Shown piece by piece: positions 48,996 to 51,934 of a stretch of 64,000 bases of DNA (position 1 is the stretch's first letter; every line of letters starts with the position of its first letter). Under the pieces are notes generated by a model. It did not search any database. It was not told where the DNA came from and worked only from the letters and a program-made list of their open reading frames with translations. The stretch is from Escherichia coli (lineage in GTDB: Bacteria; Pseudomonadota; Gammaproteobacteria; Enterobacterales; Enterobacteriaceae). The position numbers and the translations under genes were made by a program. The stretch is from NCBI RefSeq assembly GCF_013122565.1, contig NZ_CP053258.1; one strand, 5' to 3'.

Positions 48996-50612
48996 ATGCT
49001 CAGTCAAATTCAACGCTTTGGCGGCGCGATGTTTACGCCAGTGCTGCTGTTTCCCTTCGCCGGGATTGTGGTGGGTCTTGCCATCTTGCTGCAAAACCCG
49101 ATGTTTGTCGGGGAATCACTGACCGATCCAAACAGTTTATTCGCGCAAATCGTACACATTATTGAAGAGGGCGGTTGGACGGTATTCCGTAATATGCCGC
49201 TGATTTTTGCTGTCGGTTTACCCATTGGCCTTGCTAAGCAAGCGCAGGGGCGTGCTTGTCTGGCGGTGATGGTGAGTTTCCTGACCTGGAACTATTTCAT
49301 CAACGCGATGGGAATGACCTGGGGAAGTTACTTCGGCGTCGATTTCACTCAGGACGCGGTGGCAGGTAGCGGTCTGACAATGATGGCCGGGATTAAAACC
49401 CTCGATACCAGCATTATCGGCGCAATTATCATTTCCGGCATTGTGACGGCGCTGCATAACCGTCTGTTCGATAAAAAACTGCCGGTTTTTCTCGGCATTT
49501 TCCAGGGGACGTCTTATGTGGTGATCATCGCCTTCCTGGTGATGATCCCCTGTGCCTGGCTGACATTGCTCGGCTGGCCAAAAGTACAAATGGGGATTGA
49601 ATCTCTGCAAGCGTTCCTGCGTTCGGCGGGTGCGCTTGGGGTGTGGGTTTACACCTTCCTCGAACGTATTCTGATCCCAACCGGTTTACACCACTTCATC
49701 TACGGACCGTTTATCTTTGGTCCGGCAGCTGTTGAAGGCGGCATTCAGATGTACTGGGCGCAGCATCTGCAAGAGTTCAGTTTGAGCGCCGAGCCGCTGA
49801 AATCGTTGTTCCCGGAAGGCGGTTTTGCCCTGCACGGTAACTCAAAAATCTTTGGTGCCGTGGGCATTTCTTTAGCGATGTACTTCACTGCCGCACCGGA
49901 AAATCGGGTAAAAGTGGCGGGCTTGCTGATCCCCGCAACCTTAACCGCCATGCTGGTGGGAATTACCGAACCGCTGGAATTTACCTTCCTGTTCATTTCA
50001 CCGTTGCTGTTTGCGGTACACGCTGTGCTTGCGGCCTCAATGTCGACCGTAATGTATCTCTTTGGTGTGGTGGGCAACATGGGCGGAGGTCTGATTGACC
50101 AGGTTTTACCGCAAAACTGGATCCCGATGTTCAGCAACCACGCGGATATGATGCTGACCCAAATCGCCATTGGGTTGTGCTTTACCCTGCTGTACTTCGT
50201 GGTTTTCCGCACCCTGATTCTGCAATTCAACATGTGCACGCCGGGACGTGAAGATGCGGAAGTGAAACTCTACTCAAAAGCCGAATACAAAGCCTCGCGA
50301 GGCCAAACCACCGCGGCAGAGCCAAAAAAAGAGCTGGATCAGGCTGCCGGTATCCTGCAAGCCCTGGGCGGGGTCGGCAATATCTCCAGCATTAACAATT
50401 GCGCGACGCGTCTACGTATTGCACTGCATGACATGTCACAAACGCTGGATGACGAAGTCTTTAAAAAGCTGGGAGCGCACGGCGTCTTCCGTAGTGGCGA
50501 TGCCATTCAGGTGATCATTGGTCTGCATGTATCCCAGCTGCGTGAACAGCTCGATAGCTTAATTAATTCTCATCAATCAGCAGAAAATGTTGCCATTACG
50601 GAGGCAGTATAA
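48996..50612 (+). CDS. glvC: PTS alpha-glucoside-specific EIICB component (intact single ORF)
   Basis: ORF track 48789..50612; probable start [15 protein letters not shown] after an AGAGGA RBS; C-terminal EIIB segment NCATRLRI. Confidence 0.85.
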
Positions 50613-51934
50613 TGACCAAATTCTCAGTGGTTGTCGCAGGCGGTGGAAGCACCTTTACGCCAGGCATCGTGTTGATGCTCCTGGCGAATCAGGACCGTTT
50701 CCCGCTTCGTGCACTGAAATTTTATGATAACGATGGCGCGCGGCAGGAAGTGATTGCCGAAGCCTGTAAAGTCATCCTTAAAGAAAAAGCGCCGGACATT
50801 GCGTTTAGTTACACCACCGATCCTGAAGTGGCGTTCAGCGACGTTGATTTTGTCATGGCGCACATCCGCGTCGGCAAGTACCCGATGCGCGAACTGGATG
50901 AAAAAATCCCGCTGCGCCACGGCGTTGTTGGACAGGAAACTTGCGGACCCGGCGGAATAGCGTACGGCATGCGTTCCATTGGCGGCGTCCTGGAACTGGT
51001 GGATTATATGGAAAAATATTCACCAAACGCCTGGATGCTCAACTACTCCAATCCGGCAGCCATTGTCGCAGAAGCCACGCGTCGTCTGCGCCCGAATGCG
51101 AAAATCCTCAACATCTGTGACATGCCAATCGGTATTGAAAGCCGGATGGCGCAAATTGTTGGGCTGCAAGATCGCAAACAGATGCGCGTGCGCTACTACG
51201 GCCTGAACCACTTTGGCTGGTGGACATCAATTGAAGATTTGCAGGGCAACGACCTGATGCCCCAGCTGCGGCAATATGTCTCGAAGCACGGTTATGTTCC
51301 ACCTCAGCAAGATACACATACTGAAGCGAGCTGGAACGACACCTATGCAAAAGCGCGGGATGTCCAGGCACTGGACCCGGATACATTACCAAACACCTAT
51401 CTGAAATATTATCTCTTCCCGGATTATGTCGTTCAGCATTCCAACCCTGAACATACCCGCGCGAATGAGGTGATGGAACATCGCGAGAAACAGGTTTTCG
51501 ATGCTTGCCGCGCCATTACGGCGGCAGGAAATTCAGCGGCGGGCAAGCTGGAAATTGACGAACATGCGTCATACATCGTCGATCTGGCGGCGGCAATTGC
51601 CTTCAACACCCAGGAGCGGATGTTGCTGATTGTGCCTAACAATGGGGTAATCCATAACTTTGATGATGAAGCGATGGTCGAGATCCCGTGTCTGGTCGGG
51701 CACAACGGACCAGAACCACTGGTGGTCGGCGATATCCCGCAGTTTCAGAAAGGGTTAATGAGTCAGCAAGTGGCGGTGGAAAAACTGGTCGTGGACGCCT
51801 GGGAACAGCGTTCATATCAGCACCTGTGGCAGGCGATTACGTTGTCGAAAACGGTACCGAGCGCCTCGGTCGCCAAAGCTATTCTGGATGAGTTGCTGGA
51901 GGCCAACAAAGCGTACTGGCCAGAGTTACGTTAA
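50612..51934 (+). CDS. glvA: 6-phospho-alpha-glucosidase (GH4, NAD/Mn-dependent), intact
   Basis: 440-aa [26 protein letters not shown] (Rossmann-like N-terminus); start overlaps the EIICB stop. Confidence 0.88.

Follow-up and report, generated by a model that had tools for sequence, protein, structure and literature searches.

The 64,000-nucleotide stretch of Escherichia coli DNA analyzed here (contig NZ_CP053258.1; hereafter the window) carries, at the glv locus, an unbroken gene for a phosphotransferase system (PTS) EIICB transporter followed by a full-length gene for a predicted 6-phospho-alpha-glucosidase of glycoside hydrolase family 4 (GH4). Judging from comparisons with related genera and with complete genomes of the species, we consider it fairly probable that this operon represents the ancestral, undamaged form of the enterobacterial PTS module for alpha-glucoside catabolism, which is named glv in E. 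coli and agl in Klebsiella. The intact pair found here is a common and already annotated allele, and both proteins can already be found, in exact form, in public databases; it is K-12 that is the exception, not this strain.

The transporter and hydrolase genes

The transporter gene occupies positions 48996-50612 of the plus strand and encodes, according to the list of open reading frames (ORFs) and their translations, a single PTS EIICB protein of 538 amino acids (aa). The listed frame runs from 48789 to 50612 and holds an in-frame ATG at 48996; it is this start, preceded by an AGGA Shine-Dalgarno element (GAGAAAAGAGGATGTGGAAATG), that gives a product of exactly 538 aa. The hydrolase gene, an ATG-initiated ORF of 440 aa at 50612-51934 on the same strand, follows so closely that the stop codon of the first gene and the start codon of the second share one base (TAATG), forming a coupled junction with a GGAGG element 9 nt 5' of the GH4 start. 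Translation revealed no internal stops in either frame. A preliminary description of this DNA, made from its sequence, had proposed both a transporter in one 538-aa ORF and a full 440-aa glucosidase with an intact NAD-binding N terminus, and both proposals held; overlooked internal frameshifts, which it had named as the observation that would overturn it, are absent, as both ORFs are open on translation and on alignment to MG1655. The neighbors mark this as the E. coli glv locus: ibpB, yidE, and the minus-strand GntR gene yidP lie upstream of the operon, and yidL (an AraC gene, also on the minus strand), yidK, and yidJ follow it.

The 538-aa protein matches the NCBIfam model for the alpha-glucoside-specific PTS transporter subunit IIBC (TIGR02005) from end to end, with residues 2-523 aligned to positions 1-524 of the 524-position profile at 959.2 bits (cutoff, 607.3; E = 4e-289), while the glucose-, maltose-, and N-acetylglucosamine-specific NCBIfam models all fall under their own cutoffs. 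Pfam places PTS_EIIC at residues 10-346 and PTS_EIIB at 453-482, and neither an EIIA domain nor any further Pfam domain was found in the protein. EII proteins of the Glc family are defined by a phosphorylatable cysteine within a C-x-TRLR motif in EIIB and by a GITE motif in EIIC; here, the EIIB motif CATRLR begins at Cys469 and GITE lies at 322-325 (GITEP from 322). By its sequence, the protein is a member of the alpha-glucoside-specific PTS EIICB proteins of the Glc family, AglA-like and equivalent to an unbroken GlvC-GlvB. It shows no amino acid differences from the WP_000952127.1 copies in strain ES5 and O157:H7 strain 611, is 80% identical to the Enterobacter ortholog, and occurs in exact form on at least 1,000 public contigs.

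The 440-aa protein, a full-length homolog of glvG/glvA/aglB products, contains both Pfam domains of GH4, with the N-terminal Rossmann domain PF02056 (Glyco_hydro_4) at residues 6-184 (E = 1.9e-66) and PF11975 (Glyco_hydro_4C) at 195-415 (E = 1.3e-55). It is closely similar over its full length to the solved 6-phospho-alpha-glucosidases PDB 6DUX (89.3% identity over 439 residues, 915.7 bits, E = 4.7e-275) and PDB 1U8X (72.8% identity over 437 residues, 748.7 bits), and 6-phospho-beta-glucosidases score at most 210 bits, far below either; neither the NCBIfam alpha-galactosidase model nor the AglA model reaches its cutoff with this protein. The strength of the TIGR02005, Pfam, and 6DUX matches rules out chance similarity. 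An alignment of 22 sequences from several genera shows GGGS 10-13, C169, D170, H200, and Y263 to be invariant, and all are present in the window protein. By analogy with GlvA, we take the GxGS motif to bind NAD+, the Cys-Asp pair and the histidine to serve as Mn2+ ligands and catalytic acid/base, and the tyrosine to be catalytic. C169, D170, H200, and Y263 would then presumably correspond to C171, D172, H202, and Y265 of GlvA, the offset of two having been read from the alignment. These features identify the protein, as far as sequence comparison can, as an NAD+/Mn2+-dependent GH4 6-phospho-alpha-glucosidase of the GlvA/AglB/MalH type.

The window enzyme departs from near-invariant alignment columns only at T2, Y245, and L429 and, in addition, has valine at position 346; all four changes are conservative. 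Strain ES5 and O157:H7 strain 611, from which it differs by one and three residues, respectively, share T2, Y245, and L429 and have Ala346. The exact window GH4 sequence is found on 9 contigs by cluster listing and on 15 by the encoding-contig index, and the glv regions of contigs that carry it are 98.8-99.1% identical to the window, from which these contigs differ at the cbrA position.

Lesions, ancestry, and frequency of the intact state

The preliminary description had presented the K-12 operon as partly decayed, with glvC and glvB as separate frames and glvG as a pseudogene, and alignment of the window to the K-12 glv region, the check that it proposed, confirms this picture and locates the damage. 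In the transporter gene, codon 369 is CAG (Gln) in the window (50100-50102, plus strand) and the stop codon TAG in K-12, as the result of a C-to-T change in MG1655 at window position 50100 (Q369*). The split transporter of MG1655 consists of GlvC, corresponding to residues 1-368, and GlvB, which restarts at Met378 and whose model NF007255 matches residues 378-538; MG1655 also carries P238Q. In the hydrolase gene, a 508-bp segment present in the window (51205-51712, plus strand; codons 198-367) is missing from MG1655, a deletion that costs the GH4 protein residues 198-367, with H200 and Y263 among them, and shifts the reading frame. An 8-bp direct repeat (GAACCACT) at 51205 and 51713 borders the deleted segment, as is characteristic of deletions that arise by slippage or illegitimate recombination. 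In RefSeq, the transporter gene of MG1655 is marked as having an internal stop and its glucosidase gene as frameshifted, so K-12 does not carry identical intact ORFs, which the preliminary description had named as another outcome that would count against it. Apart from Q369*, P238Q, and the frameshifting deletion, the K-12 glvC-glvB-glvG genes are orthologous to those of the window, with identical flanks (yidE, yidP, yidL, and yidK) and 99.1% identity over the shared sequence.

The direction of change can be read from other genera. Enterobacter, Citrobacter rodentium, and Erwinia tasmaniensis all encode a full-length EIICB and GH4 and, divergently, a GntR/UTRA regulator; the module sits where it does in E. 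coli in the first two and elsewhere, with different flanks, in Erwinia tasmaniensis. Because these outgroups carry the full module, the comparison indicates that the intact state of glv is ancestral. Bacillus subtilis GlvA, the maltose-6'-phosphate glucosidase of PDB 1U8X, which acts with GlvC/MalP, belongs to the same enzyme family and has the same catalytic residues, but it comes from a Gram-positive organism with different PTS regulatory logic, in which the glv regulator is GlvR, of the RpiR family, rather than a GntR/HutC protein. The PDB entries 6DUX and 6DVV, for which the database gives the molecule name only, are presumably structures of the Klebsiella pneumoniae enzyme. Klebsiella pneumoniae AglA and AglB share the two-gene design of the window, with EIICB as one chain and a GH4 phospho-alpha-glucosidase encoded after it, whereas the window copy lies at the yidE-yidL position of E. 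coli. Introduction of K. pneumoniae aglA and aglB is reported to have enabled E. coli K-12 to grow on isomaltose, AglA relying on the EIIA-Glc of the host, and the K-12 homologs of these genes have been described as cryptic or truncated (PMC5309279).

Within the species, states of the locus were counted in 5,426 complete E. coli genomes. The glv locus is present in 4,283 of these and missing from about 1,140; one locus-absent genome has yidE directly next to yidL, without yidP or either glv gene. The 508-bp segment is retained in 1,652 genomes (~30%), including O157:H7, O145, and strain B, and deleted in about 2,600, including O111:H8. The alleles of codon 369 were queried with a 55-mer centered on the single nucleotide polymorphism, which a 28-base seed necessarily spans, so that only genomes bearing the queried allele match; CAG was found in 3,925 genomes and TAG in 348, nearly all of the latter being K-12 laboratory derivatives (MG1655, W3110, and HB101 are among those listed). 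Expressed as states of the operon, about 30% of genomes are intact, ~42% have lost the hydrolase and kept the transporter whole, ~6% carry the K-12 double lesion (a share inflated by laboratory strains), and ~21% lack the locus. One table in Touchon et al. includes glvC among genes that vary in presence or absence among strain groups.

Both ORFs are open at all 13 of the segment-bearing E. coli loci sampled, which comprise nine RefSeq records and four contigs with the exact window GH4 protein. All nine RefSeq records (O157:H7, O145, strain B, ES5, MRE162, YZ22PE244, GF131, E7-1N7, and PapRG-06-5) are annotated as intact. Where the products of such alleles are compared by name (O157:H7, O145, strain B, ES5, and PapRG-06-5), RefSeq calls them "PTS sugar transporter subunit IIB" and "6-phospho-alpha-glucosidase"; the hydrolases differ from that of the window by one to three residues and nucleotide identity is 98.6-99.4%, the window being distinguished by V346 and by a run of seven adenines (A7) described below. 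With the intact pair in roughly 30% of complete E. coli genomes, its occurrence in the window is ordinary.

Three of the sampled loci have peculiarities next to the operon. In strain B (NZ_CP115178.1), EIICB and GH4 are intact and yidP is frameshifted by annotation (locus record 1-300), so that this is a strain in which the glv operon may be naturally derepressed. In MRE162 and YZ22PE244, yidL is truncated beside a degraded IS200/IS605 transposase gene just past the intact GH4 gene (locus record 3531-3900).

Regulation, predicted function, and alternative readings

The divergent gene yidP (47983-48699, minus strand) encodes a 238-aa regulator of the GntR/HutC family, recognized by GntR-family NCBIfam models and identical in sequence to K-12 YidP, and the gene at the same position in E. 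coli loci has Pfam GntR and UTRA domains. Homologs of YidP lie divergently upstream of the EIICB-GH4 pair in Enterobacter (77% identity), Erwinia tasmaniensis (69%), and C. rodentium, and this shared arrangement suggests that YidP is probably the dedicated regulator of the operon. In C. rodentium, two tandem GntR/UTRA genes stand upstream of the pair (locus record 1641-3123), the adjacent copy being 57% identical to YidP and the second, distal copy 76%.

Between yidP and the operon lies a 296-bp intergenic control region (48700-48995, plus strand), in which a five-genome alignment reveals conserved blocks. One of these holds a candidate site for the cyclic AMP receptor protein (CRP), AAGCATGAAAGCGATCACGAAT at 48864-48885 on the plus strand, with the core CATGA-N6-TCAC; neither CATGA (48867-48871) nor TCAC (48878-48881) varies among E. 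coli, Enterobacter, C. rodentium, and Erwinia, and we hypothesize that this core at 48867-48881 is a CRP site. Another candidate, TGTAC-N6-TCACA at 48802-48817, was the first to be considered and was dropped, as it is not conserved beyond E. coli. The hexamer TATCCT (48923-48928, plus strand), whose aligned counterparts in the other genera read TATGCT or TATCTT, lies about 52 bp downstream of the center of the CRP-like site, a spacing that fits a class I (-61.5) arrangement, and we infer that it may serve as the -10 element of glv in a class I CRP layout. A 34-bp palindrome at 48817-48850 (AGAGGTCTACTTTTTCG/CGAAAACGTAGATCTCT, 88% complementary) overlaps a GTAGATCT motif, and a repeat, TAGATCTCT, is present both at the start of yidP (48703-48711) and at 48842-48850, the form of the repeat being GTAGAyCT; the Enterobacter intergenic region holds a similar GTAGACCT pair. 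Palindrome and repeat together form a possible operator for YidP. The terminator-like hairpins returned by a promoter and terminator scan all fall within coding sequence.

A plausible scheme for the operon can be drawn from characterized homologs, on which substrate range, dependence on Crr, regulation, and expression in this strain are all modeled. Phosphoryl groups would pass from phosphoenolpyruvate through enzyme I, HPr, and EIIA-Glc (Crr) to Cys469 of EIIB; crr and ptsHI are core E. coli genes and lie outside the 64-kb window. EIIC would import an alpha-linked glucoside, which would be phosphorylated at O-6 of its glucosyl moiety, candidate substrates being methyl-alpha-glucoside, isomaltose, and isomers of sucrose (palatinose and turanose, for example). 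The GH4 enzyme would then cleave the resulting 6-phospho-alpha-glucoside by NAD+/Mn2+-dependent redox-elimination to glucose-6-phosphate and the aglycone. Expression would probably be under the control of the divergent YidP and of cyclic AMP-CRP at a weak promoter. The preliminary description had also suggested growth tests on arbutin-type substrates, a suggestion that does not fit the proteins: arbutin is a beta-glucoside, and since the transporter model and the enzyme family are both of the alpha type, alpha-glucosides are the likely substrates of glv. The "arbutin-like" label of K-12 glvC is a historical one and is repeated in the literature (PMC2617782).

With somewhat better than even confidence, we regard the operon as functional and inducible in this strain. 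This view draws on the intact motifs, the conserved translation signals and regulator, and past selection. The diversity of intact alleles points strongly to historical purifying selection on both genes, the ratio of nonsynonymous to synonymous diversity (piN/piS) being 0.026 for EIICB over its full length, 0.050 for GH4 codons 1-197 (14 intact alleles), and 0.049 for the whole GH4 gene (first 10 intact alleles). Several observations weigh against present function or limit the case for it. The 5' pseudogene remnant of GH4 in deletion-type strains also has a low piN/piS (0.079), which means that most of the diversity is older than the lesions and that the ratio is a record of history rather than of present function. 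No sigma-70 consensus promoter was detected across 48600-52100, where shuffled sequences average 3.2. The weighted consensus score of the candidate CRP site (20/30) is tied with that of one other site in the region, so that the case for this site is made by its conservation. Identification tables score E. coli as negative for acid production from alpha-methyl-D-glucoside and palatinose even though about 30% of genomes are intact, which would fit an operon silent under laboratory conditions. No expression or growth phenotype of intact-glv E. coli was found in the literature searched, which likewise contained no YidP regulon data, nothing else direct on YidP, and nothing direct on the use of palatinose, turanose, or alpha-methyl-glucoside. 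Finally, position 346 of the window GH4 is Val where the 21 homologs from other genera have Ala (18) or Ser (3). Alpha-methyl-D-glucoside, palatinose, turanose, and maltitol all give negative results with the type strain, DSM 30083T (PMC4334874), which, as glvC varies among strain groups, is evidence in neither direction. A Vitek table with 98.9% palatinose-positive isolates was set aside, as it appears to cover Klebsiella and not E. coli.

It is also possible that the operon is intact but cryptic, such that the proteins would work and transcription would be silent under ordinary conditions, with no contribution to growth, unless activated by mutation, a pattern known for the E. coli glucoside operons bgl, asc, and chb. 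Besides the lack of a detected consensus promoter and the negative entries in identification schemes, such silence would be consistent with the intact, repressor-type GntR/HutC regulator next to the operon and with the repeated decay and loss of the locus within the species (the 508-bp deletion, outright loss, and the K-12 stop codon), which suggests that glv is often dispensable. The purifying selection on both genes speaks the other way, as do the conservation of the CRP-like site and the -10-like hexamer across genera that presumably use the system and the fact that none of the 13 sampled segment-bearing loci has a disabling lesion in either gene; we hold crypticity to be possible but on the doubtful side. 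We think it very improbable that the operon of this strain has been inactivated more subtly, by a lineage-specific missense or regulatory change, for which A346V in GH4 and an extra adenine at 48758-48764 are the candidates. Val346 occurs in none of the 21 other-genus homologs and is flanked by the invariant Gly345 and the nearly invariant Ile347, and the adenine run is A7 in the window compared with A6 in K-12, ES5, and O157:H7. The change from alanine to valine is nevertheless conservative, every catalytic residue is in place, 15 contigs from several independent samples carry the exact 440-aa sequence, indicating that the V346 allele persists, and more than 100 bp separate the adenine run from the conserved promoter-like blocks downstream of it.

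The distribution of states across the species raises a different, and in our judgment unlikely, account, in which glv is a long-lived multi-state polymorphism: EIICB would be kept open for a role independent of the hydrolase, such as uptake of another sugar or regulatory input through the PTS, or the deletion would be favored and spread by recombination. This account takes the more than 2,000 genomes without the hydrolase as keeping EIICB open. Among 12 deletion-type strains sampled, EIICB is open in all ten of the non-K-12 strains translated, and RefSeq annotates it as intact in 11 of 11, including an eleventh strain outside the translated set. A hydrolase-independent role could explain these open frames, as could a deletion spreading by recombination faster than the transporter gene decays. 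The piN/piS of EIICB is 0.037 in deletion-type strains versus 0.026 in intact-type strains (Fisher P = 1.0); as the GH4 remnant, serving as control, is low too, these data do not separate the two explanations, and piN/piS was rejected as a test of ongoing selection on the transporter after loss of the hydrolase.

Significance and other features of the window

K-12 is a poor reference for the glv locus, and about one-third of E. coli strains, this one included, may have a route for alpha-glucosides (isomaltose and palatinose-type sugars) that is absent from K-12-based metabolic models. This could bear on strain-specific metabolic reconstruction, on niche differences in the gut, and on the industrial use of glucose feedstocks that contain isomaltose, for which engineers have imported Bacillus genes rather than natural E. 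coli alleles (PMC5309279). Beyond such bookkeeping, the intact glv operon matters little.

Further features lie elsewhere in the window. Positions 1-5355 hold a chaperone-usher fimbrial operon, made up of two DUF1120 subunit genes (128-823 and 829-1575), a PapD-type chaperone gene (1591-2301), an usher gene (2311-4734), and a 192-aa ORF with no Pfam match (4731-5309), and this segment has no megablast match in any of the 5,426 complete E. coli genomes. At the cbrA position between dgoT and yidR (42480-43310), the sequence is replaced or strongly diverged, with 58-78% column identity to PapRG-06-5, and contains a 225-aa ORF with no Pfam match (42534-43211, minus strand). The lineage of the window has no close representative among complete E. 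coli genomes; over 24 kb, the best match is 98.3% identical (a baboon isolate from the Gambia), and for positions 5356-25000, which include the type III secretion system effector genes espY4 and ShET2/EspL2 as well as tnaA and adeP, the best match is only 96.1% identical.

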